From sequence record PZ386967.1: a stretch of 64,000 nt of DNA; one strand, written 5' to 3'. Under the pieces are notes generated by a model that had not been told where the DNA came from, did no database searches, and worked only from the letters and a program-made list of their open reading frames with translations. A program made the translations under genes and the position numbers. Within the stretch, counting starts at the first letter, position 1; every line of letters begins with the position of its first letter. Shown here in pieces: positions 4,505 through 61,170 of the stretch. This DNA comes from a phage.

Positions 4505-4509
4505 CAAGA

Positions 4510-4537
4510 CCCCGCTTCGGCGGGGTTTTAAATTTTT
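4510..4537 (+). terminator. Rho-independent terminator
   Basis: Hairpin CCCCGC-TTCG-GCGGGG followed by a T-run. Confidence 0.7.
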
Positions 4538-4550
4538 CTAGATTATTTTA

Positions 4551-4578
4551 TTGAATTACTTTACTTCTTCAATAACTC
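4551..4578 (+). promoter_or_regulatory. T4-type early promoter (-35 TTTACT, 16-bp spacer, -10 TATAAT)
   Basis: Matches the repeated cassette; T4 early promoters have a GTTTAC-type -35. Conserved leader and start context follow. Confidence 0.55.
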
Positions 4579-4635
4579 ACGTATAATTCTAAACATAAGC
4601 AGTACGACACCAACTTGAAACGAAGGAACTATATC

Positions 4636-20947: not shown

Positions 20948-21616
20948 ATGCAAGAGATCACTCTCTCCGAACGTACACTTCAGTTGCTGGCCAACTTTGA
21001 GACCATCAACCCATCTATCGTCCTGACACCGGGTAAGATGCTGCGCAGCATTAACGATTCGTCTACTGTTATCGCCGTGGCACAGATCGAAGAAGACTTC
21101 CCGTTTGAGTTCCCTATCCTGGACCTGACCAAACTTCTGGCCATCCAGCGCCTGCCTTCCTTCAAAGGTGGTAAAGCCGAATTCCATCAGGACTACATCC
21201 TGTTGAAAGGCGAAAACTCTCAGCTGCAATTCTGGCGTTCTGCTAAAGAACTCACTGTTGTTCCGGCTGACACCATTGAACTGCCGTCTGTCGACTTTGA
21301 AGCGATCATCACTCCAGAGAAGATGAAAGAACTGACCCGCGCCTGTTCTACCCTCGGACACAAGACTGTGCGCCTGGTTGCTCAGGGTGGCAAAACTCGC
21401 CTGGTTGCAACCACCACTACCCTGGACAACTCCAACAACTACACTGTTGAGCTGGGCGAAACCGCGCTGCCGGACTTCGTAATGCCGCTGGATGTTGCCA
21501 ACCTGAAAATGATCGAAGGCAACTACACTCTGCGTGCCTGTGCTGATCTACAGATGGTGAACTTCCAATCATCCGACGCGACGATCAATTACTTCGTCGG
21601 CGCACAGATTGAGTAA
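20948..21616 (+). CDS. gp45: Sliding clamp (gp45-like)
   Basis: N-terminus LQLLANFETINPSIVL matches T4 gp45 ALLKNFATINSGIML; size 222 aa versus 228. Confidence 0.8.
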   Translation: MQEITLSERTLQLLANFETINPSIVLTPGKMLRSINDSSTVIAVAQIEEDFPFEFPILDLTKLLAIQRLPSFKGGKAEFHQDYILLKGENSQLQFWRSAKELTVVPADTIELPSVDFEAIITPEKMKELTRACSTLGHKTVRLVAQGGKTRLVATTTTLDNSNNYTVELGETALPDFVMPLDVANLKMIEGNYTLRACADLQMVNFQSSDATINYFVGAQIE

Positions 21617-21634
21617 TCAATCTCCAGCCTGATG

Positions 21635-21673
21635 CTATAATGTGTGGGCGGGGCGTTCCCCGCCTATTTGAAA
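21635..21673 (+). promoter_or_regulatory. Promoter -10 (TATAAT) followed by 5'-leader stem-loop
   Basis: TATAAT at 21635-21640, then GGCGGGG-CGTT-CCCCGCC hairpin and CTATTTGAAATG, the same hairpin-leader arrangement seen at 33273 and 33832. Confidence 0.4.
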
Positions 21674-21696
21674 TGATTCTTCTACACGAGGCTGAA

Positions 21697-22686
21697 ATGT
21701 CTAATATCACTATCGTTTCCGACCAGTACGCATGGGAAAACAAGTACCGCCCTGACAACCTGGACGAGATTATCATCCCTCAAGACGTCCGCGCTAAAAT
21801 CCATGGCTACATCACCAGCGGCAACGGCAACATCCCGTCTATGCTGTTCTACTCCCCTCAGCCTGGTACTGGCAAGACTACCTCCGCCCTGGCCGTGTGT
21901 AATGAAATCGGTTGTAAGCAACCACTGATGATCAACGCATCCCTGGACAACAGCATCGACGTTATCCGTGACCGCGTGATTCAGTACTCTACTGGTGTGA
22001 GCGTATTCGGTGGTCGCAAAGTCGTTATCCTCGACGAAGTAGAGCGTCTGTCTATGGCGGCACAGGAGTCGCTGAAGGGTATTGTGGAGAAGGTCTCCAA
22101 GAACTGTTCATTCATCCTGACCACCAACGCCAAGCAACGTGTGAACGAACCTCTGCGCTCTCGTTGCCGTGAAATCGACTTTATCTGGAATGAGGCTGAG
22201 GCTGATGAGGTAAAACTTCAGTTCATGCGCCGCTGTGCTGAAATCCTTCGCTGCGAAGGTGTTGAGTATGACCCTCCTGTGTTGGCTGCTATTGTCAAGC
22301 GCCATTTCCCTGATAACCGCCGCATCATGGGTGTTCTACAGGATAACGTCACCACTTACGGCAAGATCGACGAACGTGCACTGGCTGTGTTAAAATCGGC
22401 CGATATGGGCATGTTGGTGAATATGTTGAAGGATAATGACTGGGCTGGGATGAAGCAGTGGGTGACCGACAACCAGAACTATATCACTGAAGACTTCTAT
22501 TCCCGCTTCTTCCAGTTCTGTGTACCACAGGATAAAGAGAAGCAAATGTTGGTTCAGAATGAGTCTATCCCTGATCTGGTATGCGTGTGTGGTCAGTCTC
22601 AGATTGAACACCGTCAGGTCGGCGATGTCTGGCTGCATGCTGTGTATTTCCTGACCAACGTCATGCTCAACATCAAGTGGAAGTGA
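21697..22686 (+). CDS. gp44: Clamp loader large subunit (gp44-like AAA+ ATPase)
   Basis: YRPDNLDE, SPQPGTGKTT (Walker A), VVILDEVERL, SRCREIDF (SRC motif) align with T4 gp44. Confidence 0.85.
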   Translation: MSNITIVSDQYAWENKYRPDNLDEIIIPQDVRAKIHGYITSGNGNIPSMLFYSPQPGTGKTTSALAVCNEIGCKQPLMINASLDNSIDVIRDRVIQYSTGVSVFGGRKVVILDEVERLSMAAQESLKGIVEKVSKNCSFILTTNAKQRVNEPLRSRCREIDFIWNEAEADEVKLQFMRRCAEILRCEGVEYDPPVLAAIVKRHFPDNRRIMGVLQDNVTTYGKIDERALAVLKSADMGMLVNMLKDNDWAGMKQWVTDNQNYITEDFYSRFFQFCVPQDKEKQMLVQNESIPDLVCVCGQSQIEHRQVGDVWLHAVYFLTNVMLNIKWK

Positions 22687-29981: not shown

Positions 29982-32174
29982 TCATTAACATTTAAGAATG
30001 CGGTTGCGACCGTTGCGCCGTCTAACCATGTAATCGTTGTGGATATCTCCGGTTCCATGTATCGTTCACTTCCAGAAGTCCGTAAGCATCTGAAGGAGAA
30101 CCTGCCTTCCCTGGTGAAACCCGAAGATACTGTGAGCATCCTTTACTTTTCATCTCGCGGTGATTTCGGAACGGTATTTGCCGGACGCCAGATCGGTGTC
30201 GCATCTGACCTGAGCGAGCTGAATAAGCTGATCGATCGCTTCCTGCAACCGTCCGGATGTACTGGCTTTGTTGAGCCGTTGAAACTGGCGATGGACACTG
30301 CTCGTAGCCTGAAGAAGCCTGGCTATGTCAACAACCTGGCGTTCATGACTGACGGGTATGACAACTGCTGGCGTACCAACGAAATCTTACTGGTTGCTGA
30401 GACCCTGCCATTTGCTTTCGATAACATTACTTTCATCGAATACGGCTGGCACTGTAACCGCGAACTGCTGGCGCAGATGGCCGAACGCTCCGGTGCGACC
30501 CACGTGTTTGCCGAAGGTCAGACCGAATACCAGACCGAACTAGAAAACGTGCTGAAGTCATCAGTGCCGAAGGTGAAAGTTGATGTCCCAGTCATCTACA
30601 CCCATGCCATCTACGTCGAAAACGGTGTGGCAACAGTACTGGCGGTGCAGGACGATGACTCTCACCCGGTCGGCTATGTGAGCATCCCTGAGAGCGTCAC
30701 CAAGCTGTGGGTTGTAAACCCTAACATGATCGACCAGCTTGATGCGCTGGCGGACATCCAGGCGGCATACGTGCTGGCGTTCTACGGCGTACACATCATG
30801 GACGCAGACCTGGTATGGGCTGCGCTGAAGAAGACGGGCGACGTTCGCTTCATCAAACAGTACAGCAACTGCTTTACCAAGCAGGACTACTCCAACATCA
30901 AGAACGATCTGGTACAGGCGATTGTTGACGACCAGCTGCGCGGCGTTGACGGTATTGACTATGACCTGGTTCCGGCTGAAGATGCGACGACCGTCGTTGA
31001 CGTGCTGACGTATCTGGCTGAAGCTGGCGTGTCTGTTGCCACCAAACATCCTATGTTCTCCTACAAGAGCATTGGTCGCGGTACTGTGCAGAAAGCGGAC
31101 GATACCGAAGACAAACTGGCAGAACAGATCGCGAATGCTCAGTCCAAAGAAGAGCGTAAAGCCCTGGCTCTCAAGCTGGCTGAGCACGAAGAATGGACGC
31201 CGTCGTTTGAACCTGCCAACGATCTGGGCGTTATCTCAATCAGCGATCTGGTCTACAACTCTGAGCGCCCGAACATCAGTGTGCGCACTATTCAGCATGG
31301 TACTGTGACTGTCCCTGAGTTCGCACAGAAGAAGTTTGGTCTGCCTGAAGAACTGGATACTTTCCAGTGGCGCAACTACACCATCGTCAAAGATGGTATC
31401 ATCAACGTGAAGACCCTGCCGTTCAAGGCTGATATCGAAGTTGTACAGAAGCTGATCGAAATGGGCGTCCACGTGTTTGGTGGACCGGAAGTGTTTGTCC
31501 TGAACCTGGAAAGCGTACCGCTGGTCAACCGCGCCATGGTCAAGAACATCAGTGCTGCTCAGTTCTTTGCGGATAATGTCCGTTTGGAAGCCCTGAAAGG
31601 CAAGCAGAAGGTGCTGAAGTTCTATCGAGACGCCCTGGTTGGTAAAGGTAACGCCAAAGGCCTGGCAGTACAGTACGGCGCTGAGGCGGCCGAGTTCCTG
31701 TCCTCCTACGGCATCCGCGATTACGGCTTCTCACCGAAGACTGAGACCAAAGAGTCTACCGACTTCTACATGAGCCGGGAGCTGAACGTGAAGATCGCTG
31801 GCGCTTCATCTCTACCGTCTATCGCAGCGGTACAGAAGAAGATTGCCGAGAACAAGAAACTCAATGCTGGTGACTTGTTCATCGCCAATGCTCTGAAAGA
31901 GTACGAAGCATTCGTGAAGTCTCCTATGATCACTGCCGTGCCTGAAGCCTTACAGAAACAGCTGATCGAAAACTGGATCGACGCTGCTGCCAAGGCGGCC
32001 ATCACCGAAGTCCGTGCCCTGAACAAGACACTGTCTAAAGTGGTGTATGGTATCGTTGCTGGCCACGGCTGGTTCACCGACCTCGACCTGGAAGAGTCCA
32101 CCATGGAAGTTGAAGTGGATGGCGTGAAGTACAAGGTCACTGCCGAACTGACAGAGAAAGAAATCAAAATCTAA
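29973..32174 (+). CDS. von Willebrand factor A (vWA) domain protein, 733 aa
   Basis: MIDAS motif DISGSM near N-terminus followed by a vWA-like region (LAFMTDG); long C-terminal extension of unknown function. Confidence 0.6.
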   Translation: MIESLTFKNAVATVAPSNHVIVVDISGSMYRSLPEVRKHLKENLPSLVKPEDTVSILYFSSRGDFGTVFAGRQIGVASDLSELNKLIDRFLQPSGCTGFVEPLKLAMDTARSLKKPGYVNNLAFMTDGYDNCWRTNEILLVAETLPFAFDNITFIEYGWHCNRELLAQMAERSGATHVFAEGQTEYQTELENVLKSSVPKVKVDVPVIYTHAIYVENGVATVLAVQDDDSHPVGYVSIPESVTKLWVVNPNMIDQLDALADIQAAYVLAFYGVHIMDADLVWAALKKTGDVRFIKQYSNCFTKQDYSNIKNDLVQAIVDDQLRGVDGIDYDLVPAEDATTVVDVLTYLAEAGVSVATKHPMFSYKSIGRGTVQKADDTEDKLAEQIANAQSKEERKALALKLAEHEEWTPSFEPANDLGVISISDLVYNSERPNISVRTIQHGTVTVPEFAQKKFGLPEELDTFQWRNYTIVKDGIINVKTLPFKADIEVVQKLIEMGVHVFGGPEVFVLNLESVPLVNRAMVKNISAAQFFADNVRLEALKGKQKVLKFYRDALVGKGNAKGLAVQYGAEAAEFLSSYGIRDYGFSPKTETKESTDFYMSRELNVKIAGASSLPSIAAVQKKIAENKKLNAGDLFIANALKEYEAFVKSPMITAVPEALQKQLIENWIDAAAKAAITEVRALNKTLSKVVYGIVAGHGWFTDLDLEESTMEVEVDGVKYKVTAELTEKEIKI

Positions 32175-32216
32175 TCCAACGGGCGGGGCAACCCGCCTTT
32201 CTTTGGGAGAAGTAGC

Positions 32217-32540
32217 ATGAGCAGTAAACCAACATATGTTGAAGTCATGCGTCATCTGGCTCAGTACGCCACTGACAATCTGAACTTGGATCTGTGGCGT
32301 GACGATGACAAGCGCAAATTGCTGGACGACGTGGCATCTCAGAACGAGGACGCCCTAGACAAGCTGGCTGGCCTCCGCACCAAGAAAGACCTCGGCGGTG
32401 ATGAACTGGACGCTATCGAAATTGTAATGGACCTCGAAGAAGAGTTTCAGGTCGAAATCGACGATGGTTGGCTGGGCAGTAAAGGTGATGACCCGACCAT
32501 GGGTGAACTCGCTGAACTCGTGGTTGCCCTGCGCAAATAA
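32217..32540 (+). CDS. Acyl-carrier-protein-like acidic protein with the phosphopantetheine Ser replaced by Glu
   Basis: DLGGDELDAIEIVMDLEEEFQVEIDD aligns with E. coli ACP [26 protein letters not shown]; the attachment Ser is Glu here. Confidence 0.55.
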   Translation: MSSKPTYVEVMRHLAQYATDNLNLDLWRDDDKRKLLDDVASQNEDALDKLAGLRTKKDLGGDELDAIEIVMDLEEEFQVEIDDGWLGSKGDDPTMGELAELVVALRK

Positions 32541-32544
32541 CAGA

Positions 32545-32609
32545 AGTCCCCAACAAACGTTGGGGATTTTTACTTTTAGGGGTTTACTTCTATAATGTAA
32601 ATGCGTATT
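32545..32609 (+). promoter_or_regulatory. Terminator plus T4-type early promoter cassette (copy A)
   Basis: Hairpin TCCCCAAC-AAAC-GTTGGGGA with T-run, then -35 TTTACT (32581-32586), 17 bp, -10 TATTAT (32604-32609). Confidence 0.55.
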
Positions 32610-32660
32610 ATTGAATTCATAGAGCGGGGCGTTCCTGTTCATTGAAAGAAGGTATACATT

Positions 32661-32885
32661 ATGTCTGCTATATCATGTGTTGTTGATCTCACCCCATTTT
32701 GCCTGAACAATATTGCTAACCCTAAATTGGTCTTGTTTAAGGATCCCTCTAATTTCTGCTGGCTGGCAAGTTGTGATACCAACAACGGGCGTCGTGCTGT
32801 TTGGGAGTTTCCCGCAACTGATGAAGGCAGAATTTCTGCTATAAGAAAATTAGAACTAGAAAATTCAAGCCGAGAAATTAAATAG
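32661..32885 (+). CDS. Hypothetical Cys-containing small protein (74 aa)
   Basis: ORF flanked by near-identical cassette copies; RBS AAGAAGG. Confidence 0.4.
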   Translation: MSAISCVVDLTPFCLNNIANPKLVLFKDPSNFCWLASCDTNNGRRAVWEFPATDEGRISAIRKLELENSSREIK

Positions 32886-32902
32886 GCATAACTTTTATTA
32901 AA

Positions 32903-32968
32903 TCCCCAACAAACGTTGGGGATTTTTAACTTTTAGGGGTTTACTTCCTTTAAGGAATGTCCTATTAT
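32903..32968 (+). promoter_or_regulatory. Terminator plus T4-type early promoter cassette (copy B)
   Basis: Near-identical to copy A (1-bp indel); -35 TTTACT 32940-32945, -10 TATTAT 32963-32968. Confidence 0.55.
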
Positions 32969-33019
32969 TCAATAACTGGCGAACGATGGGTTCACCGGGT
33001 TGAAAGGTAAGATTATATC

Positions 33020-33259
33020 ATGAAGAACAAAATGGTCGAAACTTCAGTAGAGATTGATCGCAATTGGGGATTGCTCCGCGCTAAAGGGTTCCGTCGTGTG
33101 TATGCGACCAAAGAAGTCTACGCACAGCGCCGTGACGTTATCATCAGCAAGAAAGGCAAAGAGTGGGTTGCTGAAGAAGTTGATGTCGAGACAGGCATCG
33201 TAGGAAAGGTAAAGGCCAAGGCCGTGATCCTCTTCGCTCTTCTGAAGCACATCAGTTAA
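33020..33259 (+). CDS. Hypothetical protein (79 aa)
   Basis: ORF after cassette copy B with RBS AAAGG. Confidence 0.4.
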   Translation: MKNKMVETSVEIDRNWGLLRAKGFRRVYATKEVYAQRRDVIISKKGKEWVAEEVDVETGIVGKVKAKAVILFALLKHIS

Positions 33260-33318
33260 TTCTATAACTTTGGGCGGGGTATGATTACCCCGTCTATTTG
33301 AAATGCAGGAACTATACC

Positions 33319-33825
33319 ATGACCGATCAACAAATTCAAGATTTATTTTACCTCGTCCATGATAAGTCCCACATCATGCGCCCCGGTACTGTTTCCCCTG
33401 CCGTCCGTGATCTGGTGCAAGAATTGCGCGAACCACAGACGACCACACTTTATCGCGGGTTGCCTAAAGAGGACGTTGCGCGTTTAGAGATGATGTTTGA
33501 ACGAGGCGACATGTTCCAGACATGGGATTCTTGCCTTAGCTTCAGTGAACTGAAGCATGTGGCCAAAAAATTTTCTAAATCGTACGGAACCCAAGCTGTT
33601 GCCCGCATTTGTTACAAACATCGAAACAGACTCCCGGAGGGGCTTAATGTCTATGGTTCTCTAGAAAAATTTGTGAACAAAGGCGATGAATCAGAAATGG
33701 ATATGCTGGACTTGGCGTCCATGGAGAAAGAATGGATATTCTGCCAGCCTCGCGTCATACCAGTTTCAAGAAAAATGGCAACAGACGGCACGATGGTTTT
33801 TACCGTATCACTTGTTACCCTATAA
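33319..33825 (+). CDS. Hypothetical protein (168 aa)
   Basis: ATG in conserved GGAACTATACCATG context; flanked by identical 31-bp hairpin-leader repeats. Confidence 0.5.
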   Translation: MTDQQIQDLFYLVHDKSHIMRPGTVSPAVRDLVQELREPQTTTLYRGLPKEDVARLEMMFERGDMFQTWDSCLSFSELKHVAKKFSKSYGTQAVARICYKHRNRLPEGLNVYGSLEKFVNKGDESEMDMLDLASMEKEWIFCQPRVIPVSRKMATDGTMVFTVSLVTL

Positions 33826-33877
33826 ACCCACGGCGGGGTATGATTACCCCGTCTATTTGAAACCAAGAGACTATATC

Positions 33878-34255
33878 ATGAAAAAGTTAATCCTCGCTGT
33901 TGCCCTGCTGGGCGCTTCCTTTGCTGCTGTTTCCGCCCCTCCTGTCATCACCGGAGTGTCTACCAACGGTGTTTATGCTTTCAAGGCGTATGGCCAAGAC
34001 CTCGTTCTGTATAAGAACGGGAAGATGATTGAGCGCTGCGTATCAGACGACGTGAATCGTGGGATCGACAATCAGGGTAGCCCATACGTCCTGGACATCT
34101 ATTCCTGCTCCAACGGGACGAAGTCCTTTGGCGTCAAGACCTTTGGCAACGTCGCCGACGGTGGCTGGGGCTTCATGTTCGAAACCCGCAACCACCACCC
34201 GGTCAAGACCATGCAAGAAGAGTTCTTGATCTCTGTCGGGGGTGGAACATTATGA
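33878..34255 (+). CDS. Secreted protein with signal peptide (125 aa)
   Basis: MKKLILAVALLGASFAAVSA|PP signal peptide; conserved start context. Confidence 0.5.
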   Translation: MKKLILAVALLGASFAAVSAPPVITGVSTNGVYAFKAYGQDLVLYKNGKMIERCVSDDVNRGIDNQGSPYVLDIYSCSNGTKSFGVKTFGNVADGGWGFMFETRNHHPVKTMQEEFLISVGGGTL

Positions 34256-34539
34256 CGCCTGAACAACGCCGTTCCGTGAAAGTCATGGTGAAAGGTAAGA
34301 CTCAGCTGAGTTATGTCCAGTCTGCCAATGTTGTCCGCCTGATGGAAGTCAAGAACGACATCGACAACTCCCGATTCCAATCGGCACTCTACGGGCTTCT
34401 CGAGTTCGTTCTTCGCCAGGCTGATCTTGGTCCTGTCTATACTCTTGATGATCTGACCAAGCTGTTGAACACGGGCGGGGAAGGTTTCGACACTGCTCGT
34501 ATCCTGATTGACGGTGGACCTAAAGAAGACGAGGTATAA
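34252..34539 (+). CDS. Hypothetical protein (95 aa)
   Basis: Start overlaps the upstream stop (ATGA). Confidence 0.4.
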   Translation: MTPEQRRSVKVMVKGKTQLSYVQSANVVRLMEVKNDIDNSRFQSALYGLLEFVLRQADLGPVYTLDDLTKLLNTGGEGFDTARILIDGGPKEDEV

Positions 34540-34540
34540 T

Positions 34541-34699
34541 TTGGATAAAGAATTGGTTTGGGAAATTGTGAAGGGTGTCCTAGTAATAATCGCGGTGGTT
34601 TTCATCTTGGGTGGAAACTTCTTCTATTGGTTATTCCGATCCGACCAGAAACGTCGCGAACGCAAGGAGAAAGAGAGAAAGGATCGATGGATGCGCTAA
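34541..34699 (+). CDS. Small membrane protein (~52 aa), single TM helix and basic tail; start uncertain
   Basis: VLVIIAVVFILGGNFFYWLF hydrophobic segment followed by KRRERKEKERK; possible TTG start after GAGG. Confidence 0.25.
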   Translation: MDKELVWEIVKGVLVIIAVVFILGGNFFYWLFRSDQKRRERKEKERKDRWMR

Positions 34700-34731
34700 C
34701 TAAGGGATAACCCTATATCCCGAGGTGTGTC

Positions 34732-35181
34732 ATGTTCCTTACATCCTTTATTGACTGGTTGAACATCATTAACGGCCTGAGGATCCCTGTTGGGAACCTC
34801 GGGCTTTCTCGTTCTTCTATGCCGCAAATCGATGCCGACAAACAAGAAGATTTTCACAAATATCTTGAAGACAACGGCGTGTCCATAGATGCTGTGCAAG
34901 TGCCCATCAAAATGCTTCGTCTCACCCAGAACGAAATCAACAAGATGAAGGTCTGGAAGATCATGAAGCAGATCAGAAATAAGAAACCTATGGGTCGAGT
35001 TTGGGTGTCTTCTGACAATTACGTTGTTGACGGTTCTCACCGATTTGTCGCTGCGTTGAACATGGACGGCAAACAGCGCATGAAGGTCTACAAAGTTGAT
35101 TTGCCAGCGATGGAATTTGTTAAACTCGCTAAACAGTTTCAGGGTGTGCGATACAGAACGGTCAGCGATACCCGTTTCTGA
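34732..35181 (+). CDS. ParB-like nuclease-domain protein
   Basis: YVVDGSHRFVAA resembles the DGxHR motif of ParB/Srx-fold domains. Confidence 0.4.
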   Translation: MFLTSFIDWLNIINGLRIPVGNLGLSRSSMPQIDADKQEDFHKYLEDNGVSIDAVQVPIKMLRLTQNEINKMKVWKIMKQIRNKKPMGRVWVSSDNYVVDGSHRFVAALNMDGKQRMKVYKVDLPAMEFVKLAKQFQGVRYRTVSDTRF

Positions 35182-35260
35182 ATACGATAGTTTATTGAAA
35201 CCCTTTACTCATCATGGTGAGCCGCCTATCATTTCATCCAATGAAATAAGGAGAATCACC

Positions 35261-35947
35261 ATGAAACGTTTAATCCTCGGGGTCGTGCTGTCTGGTCTGG
35301 CATTACCCGCCGCTGCTAAGCTGAACCCCACAGGTGATAAACTGTGGTCCGACCTTTCCTATTGTGCTGGGTTCTCCCAGGCGGTTGCCATCGACAAGTC
35401 TGGTTCCATAGAGAACTTCGCTGAACTCTGGAACACAGGCAACGTCTCCACTGCTGTCGTCAATGCCGGAATTGAGTTCAACCGTTACAAACAGGGAGCC
35501 TATAACCTCAAGGGCTACCTCAATGACGACGAATTTAACCGTGGAGGCATGGAGGCTGGCGATTTGATCATGACTGGGCGTATGGGCACCCAAGGCCGAA
35601 TGACCGTAAGACAGTGCCGTTCGCTCCCTTCTCCGGCATTACAGAAGGGTGTGCAGGTTGGTCGCCGCCACCTGAACCTCATCAACGATGGCAACCAGTG
35701 CGTCAAAGTATTCGAATACAGCGCTACGCAGACCTCTGATCGCGTCCTGAAGAAGGAATGGCGCACCCGCGCTCTTGGTCTCAGAGCCTGGCTGGTTGAG
35801 AACGATTATTACTTTGAAGACAGGGTTCAGAACGGTCTGAAAGACCTGGCCACGAATCTGAGCGTGAACCTTGATGATCCTCGCATGTCGCGCGAACTCC
35901 AGCAGACTCGTGTTGACTGCGACAATATGATGAAGGAGAACGAGTGA
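35261..35947 (+). CDS. Secreted/periplasmic protein (228 aa)
   Basis: MKRLILGVVLSGLALPAAA|K signal peptide; RBS AGGAGA. Confidence 0.5.
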   Translation: MKRLILGVVLSGLALPAAAKLNPTGDKLWSDLSYCAGFSQAVAIDKSGSIENFAELWNTGNVSTAVVNAGIEFNRYKQGAYNLKGYLNDDEFNRGGMEAGDLIMTGRMGTQGRMTVRQCRSLPSPALQKGVQVGRRHLNLINDGNQCVKVFEYSATQTSDRVLKKEWRTRALGLRAWLVENDYYFEDRVQNGLKDLATNLSVNLDDPRMSRELQQTRVDCDNMMKENE

Positions 35948-37179: not shown

Positions 37180-37235
37180 TCAATAACCTCGGGCGGCTTA
37201 TCATAAAGCTGCCCTTTCATTTGAGAGACTATATC

Positions 37236-48330: not shown

Positions 48331-48343
48331 AATAATTCAATAA

Positions 48344-48388
48344 AAGGGGCTTTTGCCCCTTTACTTCTTCAATATCCTTCCCTATACT
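48344..48388 (+). promoter_or_regulatory. Terminator plus T4-type early promoter cassette
   Basis: Hairpin AAGGGGC-TTTT-GCCCCTT, then -35 TTTACT (48360-48365), 17 bp, -10 TATACT (48383-48388); conserved leader. Confidence 0.55.
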
Positions 48389-61115: not shown

Positions 61116-61123
61116 CAAGCCAA

Positions 61124-61170
61124 AGCCCCTCAATGAGGGGCTTTACTTCTATAATCCCTGCGCTTATACT
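61124..61170 (+). promoter_or_regulatory. Terminator plus T4-type early promoter cassette
   Basis: Hairpin GCCCCTCA-A-TGAGGGGC, then -35 TTTACT (61142-61147), 17 bp, -10 TATACT (61165-61170). Confidence 0.55.

Follow-up and report, generated by a model that had tools for sequence, protein, structure and literature searches.

The DNA stretch analysed here (sequence record PZ386967.1, 64,000 nucleotides, referred to below as the window) comes from an Ackermannviridae (ViI-like) phage that matches 276 related records, with Escherichia phage vB_EcoM-ZQ1 as the top match (95.6%). The region 32540-35200 is mosaic among these relatives and rich in small accessory open reading frames (ORFs). Within it, two copies (H1 and H2) of a 31-base sequence (31-mer), GGCGGGGTATGATTACCCCGTCTATTTGAAA, flank a gene for a predicted RNA-polymerase ADP-ribosyltransferase (ART); the gene preceding the first copy is designated g1 and the gene following the second g9 (Table 1). 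The ART assignment is a prediction that rests on the match to PHROG 832 ("RNA polymerase ADP-ribosylase", E = 5.8e-15) and on the name RNA-polymerase ADP-ribosyltransferase given by RefSeq to the CBA120 orthologue orf140; sequence searches of the protein against Pfam and PDB detected nothing significant. The gene is carried by 67 of the 276 related records. In ZQ1 (locus L001, MW650886) it occupies positions 2319-2825 at 98.9% identity and is unannotated in the GenBank record.

A scan of the window detected exactly two perfect matches to the 31-mer, both on the plus strand and at the positions reported by the initial annotation, and no further copies with up to 3 mismatches; the expected number was 0.00 (100 shuffles). 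The distance from the end of the 31-mer to the ATG, initially given as about 15 nt, is exactly 15 nt at both copies (ATGs at 33319 and 33878). RNA structure prediction, which had been proposed as a check, yielded a stable GC stem of 9-11 bp with a loop of 4 nt at both copies (-16.6 to -18.8 kcal/mol; z-scores -2.9 to -5.2), with no shuffled sequence equally stable. Only 24 nt separate the stem from the ATG in these units. The 10-mer CTATTTGAAA has three exact occurrences in the window (21664, 33294 and 33853). With one mismatch allowed it is seen 4 times against 4.1 expected, which is not above chance; it is the association with a hairpin that gives the 10-mer its significance. A search of Rfam returned no match with E<=1 in 31500-35500, and over the whole window nothing reached the gathering score; in IMG/VR, a pair of direct copies of the hairpin core was seen in no further contig. 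An assembly artefact was rejected, as the same gene order is found in ZQ1, AV101, fGh-Ecl02, MK-13 and ChubbyThor.

Table 1. Positions of the repeats, their flanking genes and related sites in the window (PeSL, promoter-early stem-loop, a unit of stem-loop terminator and early promoter known from T4-like phages; aa, amino acids)
Feature	Position	Strand	Description
gp45-gp44 element	21633-21673	+	TGcTATAAT 21633-21641; hairpin GGGCGGGGCGTTCCCCGCC 21646-21664; tail TATTTGAAA 21665-21673
PeSL-type unit, copy 1	32542-32616	+	CCCCAAC-AAAC-GTTGGGG and T-run, then TTTACT-16-TATAAT and TTTACT-17-TATTAT
Neighbouring cassette ORF	32661-32885	+	74 aa, phrog_22629; absent from A221 and Maynard
PeSL-type unit, copy 2	32900-32975	+	~88% identical to copy 1
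Upstream gene g1	33020-33259	+	79 aa, phrog_804; followed by H1 with loop TATGATTA
-10-like box before copy 1	33263-33268	+	TATAAC; sixth base C/A/T among relatives
Repeat copy 1 (H1)	33273-33303	+	core stem-loop of 9 bp 33273-33294 (11 bp as 33271-33296), then TATTTGAAA
ART-gene translation leader	33297-33318	+	TTTGAAATGCAGGAACTATACC; recurrent TTGAAA-N2-3-AGGAAC-TATAYC-ATG module
Cassette segment	33304-33862 (equivalently 33273-33831)	+	559 bp, absent from A221, Maynard and UViG_107072
Cassette gene (ART)	33319-33825	+	168 aa, predicted RNA-polymerase ADP-ribosyltransferase, phrog_832
Repeat copy 2 (H2)	33832-33862	+	core stem-loop 33832-33853, then TATTTGAAA
Downstream gene g9	33878-34255	+	125 aa, starts MKKLILAVALLGASFAAVSA (MKKLILA...), signal-peptide-like, phrog_5474; itself a variable cassette

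The presence of the segment between the two copies varies among close relatives. Maynard, A221 and UViG_107072 lack the ART gene and show the order g1, one hairpin with TATTTGAAA, and g9 with its ribosome-binding site and ATG. The window and A221 are 100% identical over 32951-33303 and 33832-34243 (765 bp, 0 differences); since these flanks are identical, the window corresponds to A221 with an extra 559 bp whose edges are the two 31-mers. Compared with the ART-carrying ZQ1, the divergence of the window is even, at 1.1-1.4% in the left flank, the gene and the right flank. The initial annotation had described the repeats as leader hairpins that flank the gene; the flanking stands, while their place at the boundaries of a present/absent cassette had been missed.

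The same slot accommodates other genes. Among 23 loci, the interval between g1 and g2 holds from 0 to 2 of three cassettes (ART, a denV-like glycosylase and g9) in six configurations; five different genes are found directly after g1 and its hairpin across phages, and in CBA120 downstream genes are replaced. Homology breakpoints between relatives map to 32616/32900, 33304-33322/33832 and 33881, all of them at regulatory units. The cassette for the denV-like protein (pyrimidine-dimer glycosylase; loci L012, L013 and L020-L022) occupies the ART slot, and its TGA stop abuts the AGAGACTATATCATG of the next gene. Further downstream, the stretch from the gene at 34252-34539 (95 aa, phrog_4458) to ~34700 has 11 differences from Maynard and 61-89 from A221, ZQ1 and UViG_107072, which are otherwise the closest; this pattern reverses from 34700.

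Comparison of these configurations indicates that the 31-mer is a composite, made of the hairpin of the upstream gene and the first bases (TTGAAA) of the translation leader of the downstream gene. The loop TATGATTA follows g1 whatever gene is next, in nearly every relative that bears g1, and the loop TATCTTTG follows the ART gene in CBA120, Mutine and L019; the loop sequence thus travels with the upstream gene, and the tail belongs to the downstream gene. The leader module TTGAAA-N2-3-(A)AGGAAC-TATATC-ATG, including the TATAYC variant form, recurs in the genome, and TTGAAA-N-AGGAACTATATCATG is found without any hairpin at 4615, 13277 and 48416.

As for the wider distribution of these leaders, TTGAAA sites with or without a hairpin occur in the window at 4615, 13277, 32642, 33000, 33298, 33857 and 48416. 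The TTGAAA leader fronts many plus-strand genes, and T4 gene 44 has a similar CTTGAATGAGGAAATTATG. Another intercistronic hairpin is located at 37191-37235 (GGGCGGCTTATCATAAAGCTGCCC with TTTCATTTGA), preceded by CAATAAC and followed by a GAGACTATATCATG leader, as at copy 2.

The perfect identity of the two copies is confined to the window. In AV101, fGh-Ecl02, MK-13 and ChubbyThor the second copy has the common form GGCGGGGTATGATTACCCCGCCCATTTGAAA, 29/31 identical to the H1 of the same phage, and in ZQ1 and UViG_142553 (L011) it has the common sequence with the 4-nt loop inverted in place; 31/31 identity between H1 and H2 was found only in the window among the ART-carrying relatives examined. 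The H2 of the window differs from that of all these relatives at 33852 and 33854, where C is replaced by T in both cases, that is, by the base of H1. This pattern is the signature of a crossover or gene conversion that took place recently within the hairpin.

In-place loop inversion at the H2-type hairpin (TGAT versus ATCA) is observed in ZQ1, UViG_142553 and bering. The loops of the neighbouring terminators are also inverted at orthologous sites, with AAAC at 10 loci versus GTTT at 4, and GGTTT at 5 versus AAACC at 1. The loci concerned are 32547-32566 and 32903-32922 in the window, L002:1548, L011:2385, L015:2151, L001:2832-2853 and L034:11225. These same-strand inversions at orthologous sites suggest recurrent flipping of perfect palindromes.

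The stem-loop itself, as initially proposed, is stable, and its variation among relatives follows base pairing on one strand. In an equal-length alignment of 22 distinct H1/H2 variants, 99% of the cells are paired. All one-sided changes in the stem are transitions that yield G.U or U.G on the plus strand, where the other strand would have A.C mismatches. Two double changes from G-C to A-U were detected, at pair 12-31 (L100/L106) and at pair 14-29 (CECAV_050), and the G.U intermediate of pair 12-31 is present in the window itself. Only 8 of 500 shuffles reached the observed values of pairing and change. Since the wobbles are specific to the plus strand and are accompanied by double changes, the stem is conserved and selected as a sense-strand RNA structure. 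The (A)TTTGAA that follows the stem is invariant or nearly so in the 22 variants, and the base before it varies.

A third member of the family, a related hairpin with the common tail before gp44, was confirmed at 21646, between the genes for the sliding clamp (20948-21616, phrog_223) and the clamp loader (21697-22686, phrog_168). The three sites belong to a small family, of which each Ackermannviridae genome has only 2-3 members, in agreement with the low copy number of CCCCGYCYATTTGAAA (2-3 sites per genome). Four phage groups keep the gp45-gp44 hairpin at -14 to -18.4 kcal/mol with different loops, and at four stem positions groups A and C differ in both arms. These stems were read from individual folds; MAFFT/RNAalifold misaligned the spacers and gave only 3 pairs. 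All four groups, with gp44 identities of 68-99%, have a TAnnnT hexamer (TATAAT, TATTAT, TAATAT and TATAAT) 4-5 nt ahead of the hairpin. The spacer around this box has diverged, and TGn precedes it in two groups. A promoter at this site is therefore plausible on sequence grounds.

In T4, a hairpin of the C(UUCG)G type is located at the gene 45-44 junction; a literature search for a terminator there gave nothing usable. UViG_142553 has an extra ORF inserted between gp45 and gp44 (L040/L041 junctions, equivalent to 21665-21696 in the window), and LIMEstone1 retains ~50 bp of the 3' end of that ORF directly after the hairpin tail (ATTTGAAATGAcagtgc...). This ORF may represent a homing-endonuclease insertion or its remnant at the same linker.

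Upstream of g1, the 74-aa ORF and the duplicated units around it (Table 1) have the full PeSL layout; A221 and Maynard have one terminator-promoter unit and no 74-aa ORF. At least five terminator-promoter units are present in the window (4506-4590, 32542-32611, 32900-32968, 48343-48388 and 61122-61170). Their early consensus, TTTACT-N16/17-TAT(A/T/C)(A/C)T, matches the T4/PST-type PeSL consensus TTTACW-N17-TAYWAT. Stem-loops 7-10 nt after two of the early -10 boxes (32617-32645 and 32976-32998) coincide with predicted transcript 5' ends, with TTGAAA and a Shine-Dalgarno sequence after them. The stem-loop at 32622 is weaker in the window than in L011 (-11.4 versus -16.9 kcal/mol; L011:2104-2122), and in CRW-SP2 the equivalent place is taken by a hairpin of unrelated sequence (L007:574-596).

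By combining the occurrence, variation and context of the repeats, we regard the 31-mer as a real, non-random and functional feature, whose main significance is to mark the boundary of a mobile accessory-gene cassette. The interpretation that we favour, and consider probable with considerable room for doubt, is a hairpin that attenuates transcription between cistrons or protects 3' ends and that also serves as a recombination linker for cassettes. Within a variable region of early genes, the two 31-mers would be copies of one intergenic linker, with the stem-loop forming the 3' end of the upstream gene and the leader start (TTGAAA-N2-3-AGGAAC-TATATC-ATG) belonging to the downstream gene. On read-through transcripts from the upstream gene, the stem-loop would act as a weak intrinsic terminator or attenuator, protect the 3' end and insulate the neighbouring cistrons. 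As the genome comparison shows, the linker is also a homology patch where cassettes are inserted, deleted or exchanged, and the perfect 31/31 repeats would make the ART cassette a ready substrate for direct-repeat deletion. At the RNA level, we infer a leaky attenuator or 3'-end stabiliser because of: i) the position of the hairpin 6-13 nt after the stop codon, co-oriented with the genes and followed by three U; ii) its inheritance with the upstream gene and the covariation of its bottom pairs; and iii) the hairpin at the T4 45-44 junction and the hairpin-free leader of g9 after the denV-like gene.

Several observations weigh against this interpretation. The U-tract is poor (UAUUUGAA and TATTTGAA, 4/8 U, with 3 U after the 11-bp stem, against about 5/8 or more in an intrinsic terminator), and for this reason the consensus scan calls no terminator at these sites. 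The curated Maynard and Mutine records annotate the neighbouring terminators and not this hairpin. A search of the literature on transcript starts, transcript ends, Term-seq and RNA-seq for Ackermannviridae, Kuttervirus and CBA120 found nothing usable; the LIMEstone paper gives predicted promoters and terminators only. The denV-like gene joins the next ribosome-binding site directly, with no hairpin, and the mosaic boundaries at 34244 and ~34700 have none either. Because some junctions are hairpin-free, the hairpin is to be seen as one of several homology patches and not as a required recombination site. The conserved TAnnnT box at gp44 suggests that some members of the hairpin family also carry a promoter. 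Finally, the 559-bp difference could reflect either a loss from A221 by recombination between the repeats or a gain in the window.

The question of a promoter bears directly on the function initially assigned to the repeats, according to which a TATAA-like -10 box precedes each copy and the hairpin lies at the 5' end of the mRNA. In such a model, transcription would start from the box at the hairpin base, and the 5'-terminal stem-loop would stabilise the mRNA, as 5'-terminal hairpins do for E. coli mRNAs such as ompA, or tune its translation. The boxes are indeed present, but their reading as promoters is poorly supported: at copy 2, TATAA (33821-33825) is the last sense codon and the TAA stop of gene 33319-33825, and at copy 1 the window has C as the sixth base where other relatives have A or T (TATAAA or TATAAT), with CAATAAC in the distant L031, L100, L102 and L106 and no box in CRW-SP2. 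The bering group, on the other hand, has a perfect TATAAT-N4-hairpin at H1, and the gp44 box is kept 4-5 nt before a covarying hairpin in four groups with a diverged spacer. The consensus scan found no -35 box and called no promoter at H1 or H2; evident early promoters of the form TTTACT-N17-TAT(T/A/C)(A/C)T lie directly after canonical terminators (4506/4560, 32542/32583, 32900/32940, 48343/48360 and 61122/61142). For the promoters at 32583 and 32940, the predicted transcripts do have a stem-loop at their 5' end, with TTGAAA, a Shine-Dalgarno sequence and ATG behind it, and a hairpin of different sequence at the early-promoter transcript start of CRW-SP2 also speaks for leaders of this kind. 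With a gap of only 3-4 nt between box and stem, however, a start 7 nt downstream would cut 2-3 bases off the 5' arm, and yet the bottom pairs of the stem covary, which implies a role for RNA arriving from upstream. Moreover, the loop is inherited with the upstream gene, and g9 has no hairpin after the denV-like gene. A hairpin at the mRNA 5' end is thus unlikely for copies 1 and 2 and has better support at the gp44 site, and the idea of a 5'-leader hairpin is sound for this phage but probably misapplied to these copies. As to other start signals, TTGAAA as a -35 box was rejected (no -10 at 16-18 nt), and so were a T4-type late promoter at the box (two TATAAATA in the window, neither here) and a MotA-box middle promoter (no suitably spaced TGCTT).

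The remaining alternatives accept the position of the hairpin between cistrons and differ in what it does there. In one of them, the hairpin with the single-stranded AUUUGAAAU would be an RNase E-type cleavage site or scanning barrier that uncouples the stabilities of the cistrons without termination. The near-invariant (A)TTTGAA after a variable base and a U-tract too weak for a canonical terminator are consistent with this, as is the UAUUUG, which resembles the classical RNase E sites of RNA I and 9S RNA. TTGAAA is, however, explained more simply by the leader that is also found without hairpins, and we regard this alternative as very unlikely. A dedicated DNA recombination site, where the palindrome as hairpin or cruciform would serve a phage enzyme or template switching in an attC-like site-specific exchange, is the least probable of the alternatives. 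If copy 2 derived from a CBA120-type H2 (loop TATCTTTG), the crossover would be confined to the 10-nt GGCGGGGTAT arm, but relative to the closer AV101-type H2 only 33852 and 33854 differ, which simple gene conversion also explains. The loops repeatedly inverted in place at orthologous sites fit such a site, and the authors of the PeSL work raised the same possibility for GGGG...CCCC stems; yet the crossover points differ by lineage (5' arm, tail or ribosome-binding site), hairpins are missing from some junctions, recombination of the T4 type is known to work with homologies that are very short, and no recombinase was seen in the cassette, although no search for one was made. A broader form of this idea, that GC palindromes of the early region are active strand-switch or recombination sites which drive loop inversions and cassette exchange through hairpins or cruciforms during replication, also appears quite unlikely. 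If true, genes for host takeover (those of the ADP-ribosyltransferase and the denV-like glycosylase) would be moved by a cassette system that resembles attC and needs no integrase.

The favoured interpretation of a linker between exchangeable cassettes would show to the base pair how a single fixed slot lets ViI-like phages pick up and drop accessory genes for host takeover, in a group that includes the CBA120, Kuttervirus and Agtrevirus phages proposed for biocontrol. It predicts that this phage readily sheds the ADP-ribosyltransferase gene via the perfect 31-bp direct repeats. The slot may also offer a naturally insulated site for the insertion of engineered payloads.

The closest known systems are the PeSLs of T4-like phages, in which a stem-loop terminator with an early promoter flanks ORFans (Arbiol et al. 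2010, PMC2839356; Comeau et al. 2014, PMC4122927). PeSLs in hyperplastic regions mediate insertions and deletions and form mini-circles (PMC2839356, PMC4122927). Like the 31-mer, they are intergenic elements of a hyperplastic early region with a stable GGGG...CCCC stem-loop ahead of a Shine-Dalgarno sequence and ATG, and their direct copies flank small present/absent genes, for which recombination between copies is the proposed cause. In contrast to the 31-mer, a PeSL has a promoter right after the stem-loop, so that the 31-mer would correspond at most to a half or degraded PeSL (Comeau 2014). PeSLs occur in many copies per genome and the 31-mer unit in 2-3; the former are found in Straboviridae with mini-circles, whereas the latter is found in Ackermannviridae and known from sequence comparison. 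The neighbouring units at 32542-32616 and 32900-32975 correspond to full PeSLs, with a terminator stem-loop and then a TTTACT-N17-TAYWAT promoter. A full-text literature search on PeSLs found no Ackermannviridae paper and no report there of such cassette shuffling.

Other known elements share single traits with the 31-mer. Intrinsic terminators likewise combine a GC-rich stem (at least 5 bp; 9-11 bp in the 31-mer) and a short loop (3-8 nt; 4 nt in the 31-mer) with a post-stop, co-oriented position and following U, and their stem covaries while the loop varies; the 3 consecutive U (4/8) of the 31-mer are nevertheless under the scan threshold, and curated relatives carry no terminator annotation for it. 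The T4 45-44 hairpin holds the same gp45-gp44 junction position as the third family member. Stabilisers of the ompA type also have a stable hairpin a short way ahead of the ribosome-binding site, and the transcripts predicted from 32583 and 32940 start in this way, but no convincing promoter puts the two 31-mer copies at a 5' end. Integron attC sites and phage boundary sequences resemble the 31-mer as short, partly palindromic sequences at cassette 3' ends with variable content in a fixed slot; attC differs by its R/L-box architecture, its fixed crossover and its integrase, a tyrosine recombinase (none was seen here, with no recombinase search made). The cassette exchange looks homology-driven. 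The 31-mer repeats represent a known style of phage gene shuffling and no new kind of element, and they would carry the idea of PeSLs as a "mobile regulatory cassette" beyond T4-like phages into a second family of large myoviruses.

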